The notes beneath the pieces were generated by a model, which searched no databases, was not told the DNA's origin, and saw nothing but the letters and a program-made list of their open reading frames with translations. A DNA stretch of 63,005 nt, counting the filler, from Bdellovibrionales bacterium RIFOXYD12_FULL_39_22 (lineage in GTDB: Bacteria; Bdellovibrionota; Bacteriovoracia; Bacteriovoracales; Bacteriovoracaceae), in NCBI GenBank assembly GCA_001770205.1. It is 8 parts of 8 records of this genome, joined end to end, with 100 filler letters (N's around TTAATTAATTAA, not from the genome) between each part and the next. Parts side by side here need not be neighbours in the genome. Positions count along the whole stretch, not along the records: positions 1 to 8,419 come from MEQL01000014.1; 7 more parts are not named here. One strand, written 5' to 3'. Below, piece after piece: positions 581 to 15,191 of this stretch; position 1 is the stretch's first letter, and every line of letters begins with the position of its first letter. Both the position numbers and the translations under genes were made by a program.

Positions 581-1075
581 TTAATTGCTTTCAATTGCAT
601 CATTGCAGTAGTCGTTTGTCAAGGCCTTTTTGACCTTCTTTTTTGGCGTTTCGTCTAATATCATTTGTTTTTGCAATAAGCTTTTAAATTCACTTGGAAC
701 TTTCCCGCTCTCTTTGGCCTGCCGCAAAATCGATTCCAGAACCGCCACCTCATCAAAATATTCCATTCTAATCTCTTGAACCCCCGCATCTGTTAACGCC
801 TCCCTAAATTTAATCAGTATCCAATTCGCTACTTGCATTCTATTTACTTTCCCCCCAATAAACCCATTATTAACCTTATCCATTACAAACACCAACGCCA
901 TATCCGCATTCTTATTCAGCGCTACTCTATACAATCCCTGATCCTTACTCTCATTCTTAATCCCTCTCTCTTCTCTCTCTCCCTCACTACTCCTCACCTT
1001 ACTACTACCTAATTCCTCATTCCCAATCTTACTATCACTACCTATTCCTACTTCTTTAACTTTCATATCATTCAT
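581..1075 (-). CDS. Hypothetical protein with low-complexity N-terminus encoded by a C-free coding strand
   Basis: ORF 581..1120; ATG at 1075 follows AAGGAG. Confidence 0.6.
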   Translation of the reverse strand: MNDMKVKEVGIGSDSKIGNEELGSSKVRSSEGEREERGIKNESKDQGLYRVALNKNADMALVFVMDKVNNGFIGGKVNRMQVANWILIKFREALTDAGVQEIRMEYFDEVAVLESILRQAKESGKVPSEFKSLLQKQMILDETPKKKVKKALTNDYCNDAIESN

Positions 1076-1095
1076 ACTTTTTACTCCTTTTCCTA

Positions 1096-1197
1096 CCGCC
1101 GCCCCTGCCTTCCTTCTCATTTGTGACCACTTCCTCTCAACATCGTTGGGGGGGAGTGGTCACAAATAAAGATAGGATGGCGAACAAAGGGCGGCGG
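1096..1197. other. Nested inverted repeats/cruciform, candidate oriT or double-strand origin
   Basis: 13-bp arms ATTTGTGACCACT 1119-1131 / 1155-1167 with inner stem; outer CCGCCGCCC 1096-1104 / GGGCGGCGG 1189-1197; next to the Replic_Relax-type gene. Confidence 0.45.
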
Positions 1198-1307
1198 CGG
1201 AAATAGTTCTACCTTTTTAACCTCTTATCGATGATTCTCATAAATTTATTTCAAAAATAATTATCCTCCTCAGAGGAAGATATAGAGGAATATAAATAGG
1301 AAGATAA

Positions 1308-2081
1308 TTATGCTGCCAATTTCTGAGAATTGTTTTTACAAAGATCTACCAATTTAACGACTCCATTTCGAAGAGTAATTGGTGCTGACTCAGGATTCTC
1401 TTTCCACGCAGTCCCATCTACAAAACCAATCCTATTCTCAAGATTTGGCCTTTGCATTTCATTTAAAGTCTTTTTTATCGCCGCTTTAATACCATCTGTT
1501 TCGCAAATATAAAGTATCAGCGAAAACGACTGGAGTTGTGCATAGGCGAATAAAATCTCCCCATAACGAGAGAATGATTTCCTGACTCGTTCAAATTCAA
1601 AAGCAACTTGTCGATCACTTCCGGCCATCGAAATAATCGCAGTGGCATCTGGAAATTTAATCGCATTGTTTTTGACTCTAAGTCCAAGGCCACTAATATT
1701 ATCTTTTTTCAGTTCCGACTCACTTTGCCATTTGGATACAAATCCCATCTGGGATAACCTCAAAAGTGATTGCATAATGACTCGATCATGAGAAATTGTG
1801 TCAATCATTGGTGGCAAAACAAATCCTCTCCCGTTTTGTTCTAAAAGTTGTTGCCCTTTTATCCCTAAAACAAAAATGTCTTTCCCTGCGGCATTTTGGT
1901 GACTCATCAAATAATTATTCTTAATCAACTGAGACAACTGTTCTCTACCCCACCTTTGACTGCCCTTTGCAAAATATTGAGTCCAAGTTTGTCGACAAAT
2001 AAAACCTGTTTTTCCGACTAGAAAGATTGCTTCTATGGCAGCGTCCCCAAGTGGTCTGCCGGGAATATTTAAAAAGTTCAT
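1308..2081 (-). CDS. Replication-relaxation (Replic_Relax)-type protein: N-terminal wHTH plus PD-(D/E)xK-like domain
   Basis: ISHDR, KFPDA and VAFEFERVRKSFSRY motifs; last gene of the T4SS operon; ATGA overlap with upstream gene. Confidence 0.7.
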   Translation of the reverse strand: MNFLNIPGRPLGDAAIEAIFLVGKTGFICRQTWTQYFAKGSQRWGREQLSQLIKNNYLMSHQNAAGKDIFVLGIKGQQLLEQNGRGFVLPPMIDTISHDRVIMQSLLRLSQMGFVSKWQSESELKKDNISGLGLRVKNNAIKFPDATAIISMAGSDRQVAFEFERVRKSFSRYGEILFAYAQLQSFSLILYICETDGIKAAIKKTLNEMQRPNLENRIGFVDGTAWKENPESAPITLRNGVVKLVDLCKNNSQKLAA

Positions 2082-2503
2082 TCGCTTTCCTCCCATTTAG
2101 TTGGTTCAATAATCACATATTCAAAATGGCCTTCGATGTATCTGTTGCCGACAATTTGACTTTCAACCCAGCGAGCTTCTACTTTTGGTTTTTGCAAAGC
2201 TGGCATAGTCCCTGCCATTGGTGCAGATCTTTTTCCTGCGGCATAAGCCTCCTGCATTTTTTCTTCTGTGTTTTCGTGGATGATAGACCCGGCCATCATT
2301 CCGGCCATTCCACCAAGGGCAGTGCCAACGATTACATTTCGAGTTCGATATTGACCATTTTTTCCAGGATCAGCTATTCCACCCAAGACTGCGCCAGTGC
2401 CTGCTCCGATAGCACCGCCAAGGGCGGTGCTTCTTGTGCTTGTTGCGCAACCACCAAAAATTGCGGCAACAAGCACAACTAAAACTATAATATTCTTCTT
2501 CAT
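2078..2503 (-). CDS. Glycine-zipper lipoprotein of the T4SS operon
   Basis: Lipobox FGGC; GxxxG repeats; translationally coupled to both neighbours. Confidence 0.7.
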   Translation of the reverse strand: MKKNIIVLVVLVAAIFGGCATSTRSTALGGAIGAGTGAVLGGIADPGKNGQYRTRNVIVGTALGGMAGMMAGSIIHENTEEKMQEAYAAGKRSAPMAGTMPALQKPKVEARWVESQIVGNRYIEGHFEYVIIEPTKWEESE

Positions 2504-4149
2504 GAAACCTCCGAAAATTGAGATTGTTCATCTGCTATTTGAACTATTTCTCTGATCAAATCTTCACTAACCTTTTCTTTCTCTTCTGGATATGGATCAG
2601 AAATTTCTACTTTTATCCTTTGTTCTTTTTCCACTAATGGAAGTGGCAGTGCAGGTAGATCATCAAATATATCAAACTTAATTCTCGCTGTTTTGCTGCC
2701 ACCGTCATGCGGAATTATCATCAAAGCTTCGCCAACTCCCAGCTCACGCTTAAATACATTCGGGTGAACTAAGAACTCTTCAACATCTCTTGCCGATACA
2801 TCTCCCGTTTTTTCTTTAGTATTAAAAAATCCCCTCTTTTGCCGTTCAGTGAATTTTGTCGTCGACTTTGTCCCTATCGTTTTCGAAAGATATTCTGCCG
2901 AATCTGGATCATTACCGCGCATAAATATCTTCAAATTAGAGTTGGTCAAAATAGCATTTGCAACTGAATCACCGAGCTGAGTAATATCTCCCAAAGCTTG
3001 ATGAGCAAAAACGACTCCAACATTTGCACTTCTAGATTTATTTAATATCGAAACAAAACCTGGATACAAATACTCAGAAAAATCATCTAAGAAGACCCCA
3101 TAGAATTTCGGGTTACCTCCTTGCCCACGATGCCGATTGGCCACTGCCGCCTGCAAAGATTGCAATACTAACTTACCAGTTGCTTTCCCCAAAAAAGGAG
3201 AAAGCAGTACTGGTAGCTGAAAGTAAACAATCTGATTTTTATTCAGTGCTTCATCTATAGAGATCATCTTTTGCTCAGCATTAAACAGCTCACCAGTTTT
3301 TCCAAAAACAAAATGGCCAATGGCAGTTAGCAATCCACTTGTGCGTGACTCTCTTTCGGAAGGAGATAGATTATTAAACTTTTTCGCCCAAGTAATAAGT
3401 TGATCATCCTTTGTTTGCTTGGCCATTTTCTCTAATAAACCGAGATCATTTATTACCTGATGCAACTTTTCAAAGGTTGGAGTTATACTATTTTTCTCAA
3501 ATAGGCGCATAACCTGACTCATCACCTCATATTGCAAACTGCGATAGTAGGGATTTTCAAAATCAAATGCATTGAATACTCGCTCAGTAATCTCCTCCGG
3601 CGTACCTCCGATCAGCGGATTAAATGCCTCCGAAAATTGCGGATTGGATAAACTGAATAGTTTGAAGTCGGCCTCTCGATTATACTTCTTGGTATAGGCC
3701 CAAAGTTTATTCAGCAAAGATTTATCGGCCTTGCCATCAATTAGCAAAAGGCCGCGCCCATCTTTGATGTCTTGGATGGCCCAAGGTAAAATCACTGACT
3801 CGGTTTTTCCTGCGTTGGTTGTACCAATTACTTGCGTGTGCATAGCTCTCTGTTTGGGTTTAATAAATATCTGTTTCTTCTCCGAATCCTTCCCACAATA
3901 AACCGCTTCAGGGGCATCTGCTAAAATTGCACACTCCTTCATAGCTGCCGCTTTTTTTACTGCTAACTTCTCAATCACTTTTAATAATGCCAATAAACTA
4001 AGCGCAATTGAAATTGCTACGATCTTAAATTGATGATCAACAATGAATTGAAAGACTCGCGCATGATATTTTTGATAACCCATCCACGCAAAAAATATTC
4101 CCACCCAAACTAAAAGATGCATATCGTTACTTTGATTTTTAGAATCCAT
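2500..4149 (-). CDS. virD4: Type IV coupling protein (VirD4/TraD/TraG family)
   Basis: Two N-terminal TM segments, Walker A GTTNAGKT, IDGKAD, LDDF, KSRSA..HQ, GEA motif. Confidence 0.9.
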   Translation of the reverse strand: MDSKNQSNDMHLLVWVGIFFAWMGYQKYHARVFQFIVDHQFKIVAISIALSLLALLKVIEKLAVKKAAAMKECAILADAPEAVYCGKDSEKKQIFIKPKQRAMHTQVIGTTNAGKTESVILPWAIQDIKDGRGLLLIDGKADKSLLNKLWAYTKKYNREADFKLFSLSNPQFSEAFNPLIGGTPEEITERVFNAFDFENPYYRSLQYEVMSQVMRLFEKNSITPTFEKLHQVINDLGLLEKMAKQTKDDQLITWAKKFNNLSPSERESRTSGLLTAIGHFVFGKTGELFNAEQKMISIDEALNKNQIVYFQLPVLLSPFLGKATGKLVLQSLQAAVANRHRGQGGNPKFYGVFLDDFSEYLYPGFVSILNKSRSANVGVVFAHQALGDITQLGDSVANAILTNSNLKIFMRGNDPDSAEYLSKTIGTKSTTKFTERQKRGFFNTKEKTGDVSARDVEEFLVHPNVFKRELGVGEALMIIPHDGGSKTARIKFDIFDDLPALPLPLVEKEQRIKVEISDPYPEEKEKVSEDLIREIVQIADEQSQFSEVS

Positions 4150-5125
4150 TAACCGCTCCTGGGTCTTTAAAAATAAACCCCTGATTTAAAACTGCTTCGG
4201 CCATTGTACCTGCCGGAAGCTCGATCCATTTTTGTTCTTTTTTCATCTCCTCTCCAAATCCTTCAGCATAATCTTTGGCAGTTTCTGAAACTGCATTTTT
4301 CAAACCATTAGCATGTCCTCCACTACTGGCCCCCATTTGACCGCGAGTCATTGCGCCTTCTGCATAAGCGCCGACAAAGCGCGTAATTGTATGGCCCATC
4401 AAATTTTTCAGTATCTCCGAGTGAACATCTCCATCAATCCCAATCCTCCCATCAGCTCCTATACCGATGGCCGAAATGGTTCGCTCTCGCCCATTTGGGA
4501 AAATTATCGACTGAAAATTAATCTTGGCACGCTCATTAGAATCATCAAAACTAATCTCTCCATAAAGTTTTGCCCCCTCTGGGATAGCAACACTATTTTC
4601 ATAGATCGTATCCTTTACCACTACTCCAACTACTGGCATTGCATCCTTTGCGATCGTCATGGCCTCTGCAATTTTGAAGATGATCCGAGAACCCAGTGGA
4701 AGCTTCCCTTTAGCACTTGCCCCTTCTCTAGCTAAAATCATCGAAGTATTTCGGTCTCGATTAGAACCTTCACCGCCACTACCTCCTTGTGATTTTGCGC
4801 CTTCACCATAGGCCGTTAGCGGTTCGGCAACTGATCTTGAATAACCATTAGTCGATTGCAATTGTGCCAGAGTATCTTCGGTGGCCGTCAATCGCTCCGC
4901 TTTCTTTGGAATATCCTCAATAGTTGCCGTTTCATGAAAGTCTAGTTCATCTTTGGGTTTTTCTGGCAAAATTAGAACCACAACAACAAAAAGAAAAACG
5001 CAAAAACCAGCAACACTTCCAATACTTTTCCAATTGATCTCTTGTCTTGACGAAAATGGTTTAGGTGCTTTTAAGAAAAGTTTTTTACTCCGCTCACTTA
5101 AGCTTTCTTTTACTGTGTTTTCCAT
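4139..5125 (-). CDS. virB10: VirB10/TrbI-like T4SS core protein
   Basis: Single TM, low-complexity linker, AIPEGAKLYG...DGRIGIDG and IELPAG motifs. Confidence 0.75.
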   Translation of the reverse strand: MENTVKESLSERSKKLFLKAPKPFSSRQEINWKSIGSVAGFCVFLFVVVVLILPEKPKDELDFHETATIEDIPKKAERLTATEDTLAQLQSTNGYSRSVAEPLTAYGEGAKSQGGSGGEGSNRDRNTSMILAREGASAKGKLPLGSRIIFKIAEAMTIAKDAMPVVGVVVKDTIYENSVAIPEGAKLYGEISFDDSNERAKINFQSIIFPNGRERTISAIGIGADGRIGIDGDVHSEILKNLMGHTITRFVGAYAEGAMTRGQMGASSGGHANGLKNAVSETAKDYAEGFGEEMKKEQKWIELPAGTMAEAVLNQGFIFKDPGAVNGF

Positions 5126-5829
5126 GAAGACACCTTGGCAATGGTTAGATAAGAAATTGTTTTTCTCCTCAACTCAAAGCGCAAGTGTGCGTTCAAATCA
5201 ATATCCTCTTTTGCAAGTTGGATAACACCTTTAACAAATTCACCTTTTTTCATTGTTAGTGTTGAAAAAATCAATTTGTTAATTGGTTTGGTAACTCCTC
5301 CTTGTGTCAGCCAAATCCAGGATGGCACGATTGGCCCATTTTGTTTTGAGGAGATCAAAAACTCCACAAACAAAAACTCTCCGGATGTTTTACCAACTCT
5401 TGTCATTTCAAAAGTGACATCATCATTGGTTAGTTTTTTACTAACACTACTCCAAACAATCGCAGATCCATCTTGTCTTTTTTTCGGATTTTGTAGATAT
5501 ACAACATAATCCGCACTAACTTCTGCCCCGGTTATCAATTGAACATTGTACCTTTTCCATTCGGTATAGATGTAGAGATTACTTTTGGCCCCACCAATAA
5601 GGGGCTTAATGGTAATCGCGCGATCCAGATACTCGACCTTAAATGCACTCTGATCACCGACAACGACACTATTTGGAGAATCTGGCACCTGAATAATGGT
5701 GGCAATTCCAATAGCTGTTTTTACGGTAACGATTTGATCAGTTTGGACTTCGATATAACGAACACGATTCTCAAATGAATACGCAATTGATACAAAGAAG
5801 AACACAACACATAAAAGTATGTGTCTCAT
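5110..5829 (-). CDS. VirB9/TrbG-like T4SS core protein
   Basis: Signal peptide; TAIGIATIIQ..P..VVVGD..F, ITIKP, SNLYIYT..KRYN motifs; directly upstream of the VirB10-like gene. Confidence 0.7.
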   Translation of the reverse strand: MRHILLCVVFFFVSIAYSFENRVRYIEVQTDQIVTVKTAIGIATIIQVPDSPNSVVVGDQSAFKVEYLDRAITIKPLIGGAKSNLYIYTEWKRYNVQLITGAEVSADYVVYLQNPKKRQDGSAIVWSSVSKKLTNDDVTFEMTRVGKTSGEFLFVEFLISSKQNGPIVPSWIWLTQGGVTKPINKLIFSTLTMKKGEFVKGVIQLAKEDIDLNAHLRFELRRKTISYLTIAKVSSWKTQ

Positions 5830-5875: not shown

Positions 5876-6609
5876 TTAAATTATGCTTTGAATTTTCTCA
5901 AATAATGACTCTGGAGCTAGGGCAATCATCGCCGTCATCGTGGAACAATCTTGATTTTTTTTATACTTCGGTTAGATAATGATCTTCGACTATATTTTTC
6001 ATGAATCTCTTTTAAATCTTTTTCTAAACTAATTTTTTCATCCGAAGAAAGAAAAAAAATTCCGCCAAACAACACTCCCTGTTTCGAAGACTCTATTTTA
6101 GTAATAAGGTCAATTGTTAATTGAGTCTTTAATCTCTCAAGCGATGTGCCTACTGTACTGACCCGAGCAACGGTGCCGCCTGGAAAAACTATTTTATTCC
6201 CGGGCATGAGCTTAACTAAGGTCAAGTCATCCAACTTTTTTAAATATTTAAAAAGGACTTTGTCACTTAATCCTTTTTCACGTTGAATTTCCTGTGGTGT
6301 TTTTTGCTCATAAGCTAATTGCATATAAAAATTAAAATAGCTCAGATTATCAATTAAAAACTTGGCCTGCTGATCAGAAAACTTCTTAACATTAAGAGTA
6401 GATTCATCAGACATACGCAGAACATCTAGCAAAGAAACGCCTGCGGCATCGCAAATTTGCTTTGCTCGTTCCATCGATAGGTCTGCTCTATTTAGAATTT
6501 TTTTTATTCCGGCCTCACTAAGTTTTAGTGATTTGCCCAACTCTTTATAGGTAATTCCCGAAGATTTCAGAATTCCCTTTAATGTTTCTATAAATATTAC
6601 ACTGCTCAT
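5876..6609 (-). CDS. XRE-type HTH transcriptional regulator, apparently frameshifted near the C-terminus
   Basis: LKSSGITYKELGKSLKLSEAGIKKIL; ORF stops at 5935, but one extra base in the T8 run 5955-5962 extends it to 5876 (..MTAMIALAPESLFEKIQSII). Confidence 0.75.
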
Positions 6610-6746
6610 AATTTACTCCAGGTACAGATCATACAATTTAAGAACCCGTTTTGTATACCTTTAATTTATTTATTGCAATCTCAGGCTACTGAATGTATTC
6701 CAATCGCTTCAAAGTAAACAAGTTGACTAAAAGAGGAGAAGTCTTT

Positions 6747-7589
6747 ATGTGTTATAAAATGAACAATAGAATTCGCACATTATTATTAATCATAATCGTT
6801 TCGTTTAAAGCTCAGTCTGCTACTATAAAAATGGTAATCCATGAAGATCCTTCTATTGGTGCCGGGACCATCTGGTCATGGGCCAGTTTTGATAATCATT
6901 TTGATAAATGCTTAGTCGATACTGGCGCAAGAATCTCATTTGTAAAAAGAAGGAATTATCCAAACTATCCAGCTTTAGAGACAGGAGAACAAGGTGTTAT
7001 TTCGGGAACACCGATTCAATATGATCTTATTGAAATTCAAAAAATACAATCCGATGACTTTATTTCAACCAATCATATCGTCAGGGCAGTCAAAACTAAT
7101 GTTCCGTTCAATTGTTTACTCGGAAATGATTTATTCCTTGAACATTCACTACGTTTTGATTTTTCTCAAAACACAATTACAACTGATGCCATAATTAGCA
7201 AGAATTCTTTCCCTTTGATTCAATACGAGAATAAGTGGATTGGCTTTCCCGTTCAAATTAATGATATTGAATATGAAACTTTCTGGGATACTGGAGCTGG
7301 CATCACACTAGTAGACCCTGAAGTAATTAAGCAATCTCCTAATAACTATACCTACGTCAAAGACATTCCGTTTAACGATCCTTCTGGAAACCATGGCTCC
7401 GCTCCTGTTTATAAAATGAAGTCTCTTAAGTTTGGAAATTACGAGATAACTGATACTAATGTTGTTTCATACAGTACGGCCCAAATACAAAAAGAAGTAC
7501 CTGAAATTAAAATTGTAATTGGTTTCAATATCATCCGCCAGTTCAACTGGATAATTGATAACAAAAACATGCGATGGGCGATTGAATAA
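6747..7589 (+). CDS. Secreted two-domain retropepsin-like aspartyl protease
   Basis: Signal peptide; LVDTGA and FWDTGA catalytic motifs, each followed by LLG/VIG; AGGAG RBS. Confidence 0.85.
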   Translation: MCYKMNNRIRTLLLIIIVSFKAQSATIKMVIHEDPSIGAGTIWSWASFDNHFDKCLVDTGARISFVKRRNYPNYPALETGEQGVISGTPIQYDLIEIQKIQSDDFISTNHIVRAVKTNVPFNCLLGNDLFLEHSLRFDFSQNTITTDAIISKNSFPLIQYENKWIGFPVQINDIEYETFWDTGAGITLVDPEVIKQSPNNYTYVKDIPFNDPSGNHGSAPVYKMKSLKFGNYEITDTNVVSYSTAQIQKEVPEIKIVIGFNIIRQFNWIIDNKNMRWAIE

Positions 7590-8419: not shown

Positions 8420-8519
8420 NNNNNNNNNNNNNNNNNNNNNNNNNNNNNNNNNNNNNNNNNNNNTTAATTAATTAANNNNNNNNNNNNNNNNNNNNNNNNN
8501 NNNNNNNNNNNNNNNNNNN
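8420..8519. other. Artificial contig linker
   Basis: N-run with TTAATTAATTAA; same 100-nt spacer at 20387-20486, 28544-28643, 36082-36181, 42985-43084, 51056-51155, 57073-57172. Confidence 0.98.
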
Positions 8520-12052: not shown

Positions 12053-12384
12053 AATTACATCCATGGTTTTTTAAGTTTTCTGAAAGATTCCAAACAAACA
12101 ATTGAAACTACTAACAAACGGTTTCAGTAATTTAGCATCCTCTCATCCCTGAAATCTCTCTCTGGCATTTCCTAGAATTTCTCAAGTTTGCTTATTGCTG
12201 CTTAGTAAAATGCTAAGTGCATAGCAGAGTACTTTTTCCCAGACAAAATAGCAACTCCTTCGTCTTAACCAGTTAAAATTAACGTCCTTTCCCTGTCGCA
12301 CTTCACTGGCAGAAATTGCTATTTCTGAACCAGCGTTGTGATGGCAGTGGGGAGGTAAACTGATTAACCACAGGAGGTAAAAAA

Positions 12385-12999
12385 ATGAACAACGATATTG
12401 TTAAAACAGCTCTGGCCATCAAAAAATTACGCGAAATAAAGGGCCTAAATCGCAAAGCCGCTAGCGTTTTGCTAGAGATAGGACACAAATCAATTGAAAG
12501 AATCGAAAACTGCCGGGCACCACTCAATGAAGAAAGGATTGCAAAATATGTTTCACGTTATGGCTTTACAATGGAAGATTTTAATCTCTGTTTGAATGGC
12601 CATGTGACGCAAGTTCGAGATAAATATTCACCAGAAAAACCAAAGGTCATTGAGAATAATCGTTTGAGAAGAAGCTACAAACGAATTGTTACAAAAGAAG
12701 TAAAAACTCTTCAGGTATTGCGGCGTTTAAAACGATTAACTCAGCACAAAGCATCAGTCTATTGTGGATATCATAGATCGGCCATTGGCCACATCGAAAA
12801 TGGCCGTATTGAGCTTACCCCAAAAAAAGTTAAGCACATTGTGGAAGCCTTTGGTTACACCATGGCCGACTTTGAGTATCACTTTAAAAGCGACCAATTT
12901 ATCACTGATATTCAGGAAAATTGCATCAATATCATCCGGGCCCTTAGTGAAGAAAAATTAAAGGCCGTGTACCCACTTCTTCAAACATTTAATAAATAA
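12385..12999 (+). CDS. Regulator with two tandem XRE HTH domains
   Basis: IKKLREIKGLNR...IERIEN and VLRRLKRLTQ...IGHIENGR; AGGAGG RBS. Confidence 0.85.
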   Translation: MNNDIVKTALAIKKLREIKGLNRKAASVLLEIGHKSIERIENCRAPLNEERIAKYVSRYGFTMEDFNLCLNGHVTQVRDKYSPEKPKVIENNRLRRSYKRIVTKEVKTLQVLRRLKRLTQHKASVYCGYHRSAIGHIENGRIELTPKKVKHIVEAFGYTMADFEYHFKSDQFITDIQENCINIIRALSEEKLKAVYPLLQTFNK

Positions 13000-14391: not shown

Positions 14392-14471
14392 ATGGAGTAC
14401 CTCCTACACATAAGACTATAATAAATTTAAAAGCCATTTTTGATAATTCGTGCGATTTTTTCATAATCTAT

Positions 14472-15191
14472 TTATTCTAAATTAACAGATTGATCTAAGA
14501 TGGTGCCTTCTAAAATTCTAATCAGTGCTTCCGCTTGAACTTTGGTGTCTCCGGAATGCATTTGCCTACCAATAAAATCACAAATCAACTCGTTGCTGTC
14601 ATTTAATAAACCATCATATTTTATCCATGTAGACGTTACCGCTTTTTTTGTCGAACCACTATTCATTAACAAAAAATAAAACTGGCGCATGTTGCTCGGA
14701 AATGGCTCCTTAAAAAAAACATCATTTCTTTTTCGATTGTTCATTTCTGATTTTCGACGCACAATTCTCTGCTCAAGAGAAACATCAAGATAGACATAAG
14801 CATCAGCAGGTGCGAGGATTTTTTTACGAAGCAATTCAGAATACGTTTCAACCATCCACCCATAAACATCTAACTCCGGATAAAACCAACGCTCAGCATA
14901 GTTGTGAGCAAGTGGAGATGTGAAATCAGCATCTGAAATGACTAAAGGGGAATGTTCCAACTCGTTCTTTGTCCAATTGTAACGTTCAACATCAAGGTCA
15001 AAAAAGAATTTTTGTTTCGCCTTTTTTTCCACAATAGTATTAGGCGATTTGGGGAAATTTTTACTTCCTCCAATCCAATCAACGTGCTCCGGAACTATAG
15101 GACAACTATACTTTTTGGCCAAGTAATTTACCAACGTCGTTTTTCCAGATGCCGATTGTCCACAAATAACAATATGTTTGCCATTGGCCAT
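14472..15191 (-). CDS. P-loop kinase (deoxynucleoside/thymidylate kinase-like)
   Basis: GQSASGKTT, VPE, YVYLDVS..RR. Confidence 0.7.
   Translation of the reverse strand: MANGKHIVICGQSASGKTTLVNYLAKKYSCPIVPEHVDWIGGSKNFPKSPNTIVEKKAKQKFFFDLDVERYNWTKNELEHSPLVISDADFTSPLAHNYAERWFYPELDVYGWMVETYSELLRKKILAPADAYVYLDVSLEQRIVRRKSEMNNRKRNDVFFKEPFPSNMRQFYFLLMNSGSTKKAVTSTWIKYDGLLNDSNELICDFIGRQMHSGDTKVQAEALIRILEGTILDQSVNLE

Follow-up and report, generated by a model that had tools for sequence, protein, structure and literature searches.

The large imperfect inverted repeat at 1089-1203 (+ strand) of the window, by which we mean the whole 63,005-nucleotide stretch of DNA that we analyzed, most likely serves an integrative conjugative element of Bdellovibrionota, one that encodes a MOBC relaxase, as its transfer origin; we put the probability of this reading at about 90%. 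Judging from sequence comparisons, the repeat very probably belongs to the MOBC origins of the pAD1/pAM373 type. Directly 5' of this hairpin, on what would be the nicked strand, lies a tract without any G (941-1097, + strand), and this tract is real, is conserved in homologues, and is a feature at the level of the DNA. The type of origin is already known from pAD1 and pAM373, and the one-sided G-free flank is apparently undescribed. An earlier note, made from the sequence alone, had pointed to the tract and had proposed an origin of transfer or of rolling-circle replication. We confirm the observation, our results support the transfer origin, and a function for the flank is something that we infer.

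Composition of the tract

The tract comprises 67 T, 59 C, 31 A, and no G over 157 nt (38% C). A second G-free run of 61 nt at 836-896 (+ strand), inside the coding region of an RHH-like protein, appears to be the fading end of the same bias, and 836-940 contains just 5 G in all. Our base counts agree with the earlier note on both runs. At the window's G content, about 1e-8 runs like the one at 941-1097 would be expected per window. In the whole genome (3.95 Mb in 62 contigs), the longest G- or C-free runs are 169, 157, and 145 nt, and the next is 98 nt. These three are the same site in the three copies of one module that the genome carries, on contigs C27, C14 (the window), and C6, respectively. 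Because 665-1152 has no differences from contigs of three other sequencing runs from three studies, the tract is not an assembly artefact.

Viewed from the - strand, the tract is C-free and carries the Shine-Dalgarno-like site and the first 45 codons of the RHH gene. When aligned, the tracts of C14, C6, and C27 differ at 18, 27, and 26 positions, plus indels. C takes part in 0 of these 71 differences, versus 39 of the 143 in the core of the gene. A purine mirror repeat is found in two of the genome's copies. It had suggested a triplex, an idea that we dropped as the third copy lacks the repeat.

The element, its relaxase, and the RHH-like protein

The window consists of separate contigs with runs of N between them. 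The locus is a contig of 8,419 bp, which is followed by a run of N at 8420-8519, and the element is cut at both ends. In order along the - strand, there are genes for VirB9/CagX (5110-5829), VirB10/TrbI (4139-5125), and a VirD4-type coupling protein (2500-4149; TraG-D_C, T4SS-DNA_transf, and TrwB_AAD_bind), all three from Pfam; a glycine-zipper lipoprotein-like gene of the transfer operon (2078-2503; Pfam match below the cut-off); the relaxase gene (1308-2081); the hairpin; the gene for a 164-aa protein (581-1075); an HTH_3 regulator of the element (340-567; Pfam); and an 80-aa ORF (114-356), which precedes a large serine recombinase in the C27 copy. The conjugation genes on the window's contig are VirB9, VirB10, VirD4, and the relaxase only. 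Around the same module, the C27 sister copy has VirB2, a VirB4-type ATPase, and the large serine recombinase, so we consider this to be an integrative conjugative element: with C27, the element has an integrase, a T4SS, a coupling protein, and a relaxase. The context is conjugative and integrative. The part of the earlier proposal that concerned vegetative (rolling-circle) replication draws no support from our data; a transfer origin is very probable. The named relatives are mostly Bdellovibrionota. An RNA run (X10) contained only relatives, at a low share, and is uninformative about expression.

There are also some cargo genes within the transfer operon, at 5935-7589 in the window (an HTH regulator and an aspartyl protease) and at 2190-4390 in C6 (other genes); where such genes are inserted varies between the sister copies. 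The genome has a fourth copy of the oriT (C46 18251-18428; L238, L289), which has its own C-free run of 74 nt and belongs to a different element, with a divergent relaxase, another downstream gene, and, by eye, SSB-like and tyrosine-integrase-like ORFs. And the Bdellovibrio plasmids pBdHAGR4 (L081) and pBdHAGR1 (L284), which were typed as non-mobilizable, encode a related relaxase and contain an oriT-like repeat.

The gene at 1308-2081 (- strand) had been described as a Replic_Relax gene. Profile comparison indicates that it encodes a divergent MOBC relaxase, with a winged helix and a D..ExE..K..RY nuclease motif. The protein alone has no match in a Pfam search, Replic_Relax (PF13814) included, so its identity as a MOBC relaxase rests on that comparison. 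Just 1 of 96 family members matches PF13814 (E = 9e-5), and this branch of the relaxases is divergent. The profile of 96 sequences, which were selected from at least 150 listed relatives plus further search matches, aligns over most of its length with the MOBC relaxases of pAM373 (probability 91, E = 9.5e-7) and of pMET1 (probability 91, E = 1e-6). Across the 96 sequences, D145, E162, and E164 are invariant and K168, R172, and Y173 are at least 90% conserved, and all six align with the same residues in the pAM373 and pMET1 relaxases. By its sequence, then, the protein appears to have the PD-(D/E)XK-type D..ExE..K..RY active site of MOBC relaxases. According to the available part of a review, these relaxases also have an N-terminal winged helix (PMC12857230). 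Our model of the protein (pLDDT 94.7) has one as well: residues 1-85 match MarR-type winged helices with Z up to 8.5 and an rmsd of 2.0 over 67 aligned residues. Foldseek matches to nuclease folds were weak (E above 0.001). Fold searches with the model matched no solved MOBC structure, and such an absence is uninformative.

On the other side of the hairpin, the 164-aa protein (581-1075, - strand) has a charged N-terminal tail and an RHH-like and helical region that resembles TraM. If we go by the model, it is a probable relaxosome accessory protein. The best match of its RHH-like core is the N-domain of pED208 TraM (Z 5.5, rmsd 1.9, 48 aligned), which is modest and comes from a monomer model with a pLDDT of 62, at 8% identity; other RHH proteins reach Z of 3.3-4.0. 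The start codon is most likely the ATG at 1075, not 1120, with a Shine-Dalgarno-like AGGAG at 1084-1088 (- strand) that lies inside the tract and has the same position in the three copies. The tail is modeled with low confidence and is charged and variable, and such tails are rich in E, K, N, and G. As had been suggested from the sequence, the skew shapes the N-terminus of the overlapping protein, in that the tract covers the codons of the tail. In the best explanation, the charged tail may be a by-product of start codons drifting into the tract. No relatives of the RHH protein were found among viral contigs. One homologue (L054) has the opposite bias: its tail is a C-rich repeat (IQNPIP), and no hairpin was found upstream of it.

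The hairpin as a probable transfer origin

The hairpin at 1089-1203 has a GC-rich outer stem, a perfect inner stem of 13 bp (1119-1131/1155-1167), and a wobble-rich apical stem. The inverted repeats that the earlier note placed at 1096-1197 are indeed there, and their measured extent is slightly wider. The + strand folds better than the - strand (-40.7 versus -35.8 kcal/mol; z of -9.9 versus -7.7), and the G-T wobbles sit in the apical stem, both as previously claimed. Since those wobbles favor one strand, it is doubtful that this is a cruciform.

Among 73 loci that were found by their RHH gene (70 that were fetched, with 3 duplicates of the genome's own copies dropped, plus those 3 copies), 61 have the hairpin. 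Of the other 12, 6 have less than 340 nt upstream and 6 have no hairpin by this search. In 43 non-redundant sequences, the inner stem is 99% paired, versus 43-57% for slid controls, and 11 of its 13 pairs have two-sided changes. A relaxase gene lies at most 1.1 kb upstream at all 39 testable RHH loci and inside the fetched stretch at 38 of the 49 loci that were found by the motif described next. This conserved core, CGTTG-N9-GGTCA at 1144-1162 (+ strand), which reads TGACC-N9-CAACG on the - strand, occurs with identical spacing at 11 of the 11 Enterococcus/Carnobacterium MOBC loci that we examined and on the Bdellovibrio plasmid pBdHAGR4. Because the stem covaries, the core motif is shared with enterococci, and the neighboring protein aligns with MOBC relaxases, the hairpin is very probably a MOBC oriT. 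As in origins of the pAD1/pAM373 type, a large inverted repeat holds the nic motif and is linked to a MOBC relaxase and a coupling protein (VirD4 at 2500-4149). The core motif locates origins that PF13814 misses, across a widespread group of Bdellovibrionota islands and plasmids. (A loose version of the motif matched 168 of 401 genomes of the phylum, many of them by chance, so this is no estimate of prevalence.) An Rfam search of the hairpin gave nothing at the gathering threshold and just weak matches to miRNA hairpins far below the cut-off, no sigma-70 promoter-like site was found in or beside the hairpin, and one Paenibacillus locus (L285) had no repeat of 10 bp or more.

Our analysis makes it quite probable that the nick is on the + strand, in the 3' arm of the hairpin, between 1158 and 1159. 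Three lines of evidence lead us to this placement: the asymmetry of the fold, the homology to nic motifs, and the spacing of repeats. The strand equivalent to + folds better at 59 of 61 RHH-found loci and at 46 of 49 loci found by the motif. Of 441 cells, 83 have an apical wobble that is G-T on that strand, and 0 have one that is G-T on the other; the set for this count is biased by hand-picked C-rich spacers, and the RHH-found set of 43 sequences is unbiased in that way. For CloDF13, the nic has been mapped as GGGTG/GTCGGG (PMC5935869), and the ICEKp1 nic is tabulated in PMC7755788; in the parts of these papers that were available, TG/GTC is common to both. The nic of pMET1 is described as within an inverted repeat in the available part of PMC2262945. 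The CloDF13 nic maps to the 3' arm of its better-folding strand. With a nick at CGTTG-N9-G/GTCA, the direct repeats of enterococci would lie 66-134 nt further downstream (67-117 nt in E. faecalis L077). In pAD1, an array of direct repeats lies about 70-120 bp downstream of nic, according to the accessible part of a review (PMC12857230), and this match to L077 supports a nick on the + strand, with the caveats that the review's "downstream" may refer to map orientation and that the comparison is by way of L077, not the pAD1 sequence. By our own arithmetic, a nick on the other arm would put the enterococcal repeats about 110-180 nt upstream. With a + strand nick at 1158/1159, the tract would be the last DNA to be transferred, at the trailing end of the transferred strand. 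We also considered a nick on the - strand, with the tract as leading DNA, and dropped it after the results on fold asymmetry, the CloDF13 nic, and the wobbles and repeat spacing.

The window has three 12-bp direct repeats at 1272-1310 (+ strand), 113-152 nt 3' of the predicted nick, which are a possible binding site for the relaxase. They are not kept in the sister copies, and 6 of 48 relatives have a direct-repeat array, versus 1 of 48 control windows. A small inverted repeat at 1257-1311 overlaps these repeats; it is terminator-like on the - strand and lies just past the stop codon of the relaxase.

Conservation of the tract and its independence of coding

In the window, C is used in 0 of 30 synonymous choices, where 10.3 would be expected from the locus and 12.3 from the genome (P = 1.6e-9 given the amino acids and the genome's codon use). 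Across 40 non-redundant loci (44 RHH loci less 4 without the anchor motif), C is used at 96 of 504 synonymous sites versus 204 expected, or 96 versus 185 if this genome is excluded. Elsewhere the ratio is close to one: 0.97 for the first 25 codons of neighboring genes and 1.01 for the first 46 codons genome-wide. The depletion at synonymous sites implies that the bias is not driven by the protein, and amino-acid composition alone, which the earlier note had named as a possible explanation, does not account for it. Its suggestion of a strand-specific signature is borne out: the skew is present at synonymous sites and is conserved in homologues, and homologous elements keep both skew and hairpin at this position. 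The tract is a clear case of a DNA-level constraint that dictates the tail of a protein.

At 34 of 44 loci, the C-free run adjacent to the hairpin is the longest on either strand; the adjacent runs have a median of 53 nt and a range of 18-157 nt, of which the window's lineage is the extreme. Family-wide, the frequency of C is 0.04 near the hairpin and returns to the background over about 200 nt. If loci are found by the motif instead, then the mean C downstream is 0.062 for 57 true repeats, 0.21 for 13 chance matches, and 0.26 for 115 chance matches in viral contigs (a control scan with 120 matches, of which 115 scored as chance and 0 as a true repeat). The 74 motif loci (30 chosen automatically, 40 hand-picked on the matched string with the flanks unseen, and 4 of the genome's own) partly overlap the RHH set, and kin among them are not independent; the hand-picking of 40 of them for C-rich spacers biases the wobble count, not the composition of the flank.

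The tract does not depend on the RHH gene, as there are 6.9 C per 100 at 35 loci without an adjacent RHH gene and 6.1 at 14 with one. Non-coding DNA has it too, as do sites that precede other gene families or the start of a relaxase, and it is still present at distances of at least 100 nt from the nearest start codon and where unrelated genes follow. Among ordinary upstream intergenic regions of this genome, 0 of 1,146 have 5% C or less. The same holds for 3 of 140 sides of 70 GC-rich repeats of the genome, and all 3 are oriT copies.

The adjacent runs of the Firmicutes loci measure 66, 19, 64, 63, 66, 23, 38, 47, 40, 39, and 34 nt, and are the longest or tied at 6 of 11 loci (L077 and L078 are near-identical here); this evidence is weaker, as the hosts are C-poor on their sense strands. 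In E. faecalis plasmids, the tract is non-coding and is on the same side and strand of the repeat. It is missing or weak in some members (L217, L245, L255, L284, and L080). At CloDF13-type (MOBC1) origins, which have long C-rich arms, we found it in 0 of 6 (L074, L082, L083, L084, L286, and L287), so MOBC transfer as a whole does not require it.

Two other features of these loci are worth recording. Enterococcal and Carnobacterium plasmids have a second small hairpin, with a CCCCT(A/C)CCCC arm, 40-90 nt past the oriT repeat (L075-L078, L279-L284), and a similar hairpin is found in the Bdellovibrio plasmid pBdHAGR1. This second hairpin beyond the tract is reminiscent of primase ssi sites. Also, in MOBC plasmids of Acinetobacter, very long runs of nearly pure A+T lie upstream of mobB, at a distance from the oriT repeat (L083 1121-1273, L082 1149-1326).

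Possible causes of the bias

Our tentative proposal, to which we give a little less than even odds, is that the G-free leader aids the refolding of the hairpin for termination and for self-splinted religation. The relaxase would nick the + strand, and unwinding and transfer would finish with the G-free tract and, after it, the C-rich 5' arm. With the strand displaced from 5' to 3', the tract would emerge just ahead of the C-rich arm. Having no G, it could not trap this arm, which would remain available for pairing with the G-rich 3' arm. The refolded hairpin would provide a double-stranded nick site for the terminating cut. Alternatively, the two ends of the strand would splint each other, which would allow ligation without a covalent relaxase. 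Either way, the tract would be a selected, DNA-level part of the origin. The bias would be one-sided because only the DNA that emerges before the C-rich arm can trap it. We are somewhat less sure of the wider claim that pAD1-type MOBC origins, in at least two phyla, have a third functional part, a one-sided G-free leader that directs refolding, by which a relaxase without a covalent link to DNA could terminate transfer and the strand could splint its own religation. If true, selection on the leader is powerful enough to dictate the N-terminal tail of any gene that comes next.

On the C-free strand, the frequencies at four-fold sites are A 0.46, C 0.09, G 0.29, and T 0.15 (background 0.26, 0.24, 0.21, and 0.29), and in non-coding parts of the tract they are A 0.43, C 0.07, G 0.27, and T 0.24 (background 0.32, 0.19, 0.22, and 0.28). 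That C is strongly lost and T more weakly is as expected if the tract is kept from pairing with the neighboring arm. The data also fit selection for unstructured single-stranded DNA, one of the causes in the earlier note. In a folding simulation, the native flank frees the C-rich arm at 48 of 49 loci (0.027 versus 0.147 for the control), and the opposite flank barely differs from its control (0.162 versus 0.196); this result follows from the composition and is not independent of it, and the benefit is alike for both strands. Three results count against a role in folding: MOBC1 origins do without the tract, CC dinucleotides are not extra-depleted in the tract (ratio 1.13), and the strength of the tract has no link to the G content of the arm (rho = -0.19, p = 0.2).

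Genes lie on the C-free strand in almost all of the elements, and causes linked to transcription are hard to separate. A C-rich, G-poor stretch followed by a strong hairpin is the textbook layout of a rut site plus pause, and the + strand, with 38% C and no G before its hairpin, looks like this. The host genome has rho, the tract lengths of 70-170 nt fit, and the downstream genes are on the C-free strand at 47 of 49 loci. So the C-free sense RNA might avoid the loading of Rho where the operon crosses the untranslated hairpin, or else the C-rich, G-free opposite strand might be a loading site that guards the origin by stopping transcription into it. We think that Rho is an unlikely cause, as the C-free state reaches 45 codons into translated sequence in the window, where shielding by ribosomes is expected; the tracts of enterococci are rich in T, and their C content on the candidate rut strand is ordinary; L253 retains its tract though the next genes are convergent (one case, and compatible with the rut version); and other GC-rich repeats of the genome have no such flank (the 3 exceptions among 140 sides being the oriT copies). 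We are slightly more doubtful that the tract is a template, in the manner of sso or ssi sites, for an RNA primer or R-loop at which synthesis of the second strand starts on the transferred strand. If that synthesis began at the hairpin, the tract would be the first sequence read; the most stable hybrids are those of purine-rich RNA with a pyrimidine-rich template; and the would-be RNA strand is 72-80% purine at most loci. Some tracts, however, are C-free yet not purine-rich (0.51-0.60 purine in L208, L210, L211, and L272), and there is no promoter-like site in or beside the hairpin. The second conserved hairpin past the tract would suit a primer in Firmicutes and one Bdellovibrio plasmid, but its motif is at 0 of 49 Bdellovibrionota island loci.

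It seems very improbable that the cause lies in translation or in the protein, with the tract as an unstructured landing pad for ribosomes behind an mRNA hairpin that also encodes a charged, low-complexity tail. The Shine-Dalgarno-like site and the N-terminal tail are inside the tract, A-rich 5' ends are common, and the tails are rich in E, K, N, and G. Nevertheless, the 5' codons of other genes are not depleted in C (the ratios of 0.97 at these loci and 1.01 across the genome), and the tracts far from start codons and before unrelated genes largely refute this idea. Furthermore, G is not depleted on the C-free strand, the lengths of spacer and tail trade off (rho = -0.42, p = 0.006, n = 40), and the wobbles in the hairpin favor the strand that is not the mRNA. 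We give still less credence to a mutational footprint, whether from deamination of C on a single-stranded - strand or from G-to-T oxidative damage on the + strand. The sharp start at the hairpin with its smooth decay over about 200 nt, the few non-coding tracts that are T-rich (L208 and L272), and the net change on the + strand (G down, T up) would agree with such a footprint. But the cytosine deamination that the earlier note suggested for persistently single-stranded DNA should give T, and the C-free strand gains A and G instead (T is 0.15 versus 0.29 at four-fold sites and 0.24 versus 0.28 in non-coding DNA). Of 134 substitutions between 7 related pairs of tracts, 3 are C-T differences, and, as mentioned above, C is absent from the differences among the three copies. 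Also, the strand that would be single-stranded during transfer is the + strand, and its exposure should deplete it of C, yet it is C-rich.

Relation to known systems

The closest known origins are oriT2 of pAD1 and oriT of pAM373, which are used by the MOBC relaxases TraX and Orf8. Like the origin here, they have a large nested inverted repeat, and the pAM373 type shares the TGACC-N9-CAACG core and a homologous relaxase with a winged helix and a PD-(D/E)XK nuclease. In pAM373, a G-free run of 66 nt, the longest in the 36.7 kb that we read, adjoins the repeat on the same side and strand. On the other hand, the origin here lies downstream of the relaxase and upstream of the RHH gene, whereas theirs are between the coupling protein and the relaxase; a direct-repeat array is rare here (6 of 48 loci) and the spacer is C-rich; and this element is an integrative one in a Bdellovibrionota host, with a longer tract that is partly coding. 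The MOBC1 clade of CloDF13, ICEKp1, and pMET1 has homologous relaxases and, as predicted here, a TG/GTC nic that falls within a long inverted repeat, in its 3' arm, but it has neither the CAACG-N9 core nor the G-free flank (6 of 6 loci). There is also a likeness to TraM of F-like plasmids, as an RHH-like accessory gene sits beside the origin and is read away from it at the trailing end, and the coupling protein here carries the Pfam "TraM recognition" domain. Unlike this element, F uses a MOBF relaxase, and at 35 of 49 of our loci the adjacent RHH gene is replaced by other families.

In the literature that we covered, we found no paper that describes such a tract at an oriT; the primary papers on pAD1 and CloDF13 and the supplement of PMC7755788 were outside this coverage. 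Similarly, we found nothing on point about Bdellovibrio integrative conjugative elements and oriT or about Replic_Relax. From the parts of the following sources that were available, low GC at the start of transfer strands was speculated in a 2026 paper to reduce structure (PMC13478746), MOBC elements are without the usual enrichment of the leading region (PMC11541004), and no covalent intermediate between a MOBC relaxase and DNA has been observed (PMC12857230, PMC6736028, PMC8152469). Because no such intermediate has been seen, recruitment of DNA and religation by MOBC systems are called unexplained in the available portions of two reviews (PMC12857230, PMC6736028). Other sources, also available in part, served as background only (10.1101/2024.01.30.577996, PMC5714925, PMC5587640, PMC7117660, PMC3394729). 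With the core motif, the predicted nicked strand, and a rule for the composition of one flank, the question of MOBC religation becomes testable by substitutions.

In pAM373 (L075), we had at first taken a large hairpin at 12094-12513 to be the oriT, and this was superseded by the nic-like repeat and direct repeats at 14392-14629. The hairpin at 12094-12513, of about 300 nt, lies upstream of an AcrIIA9/ssb cluster and is possibly a single-strand promoter or origin.
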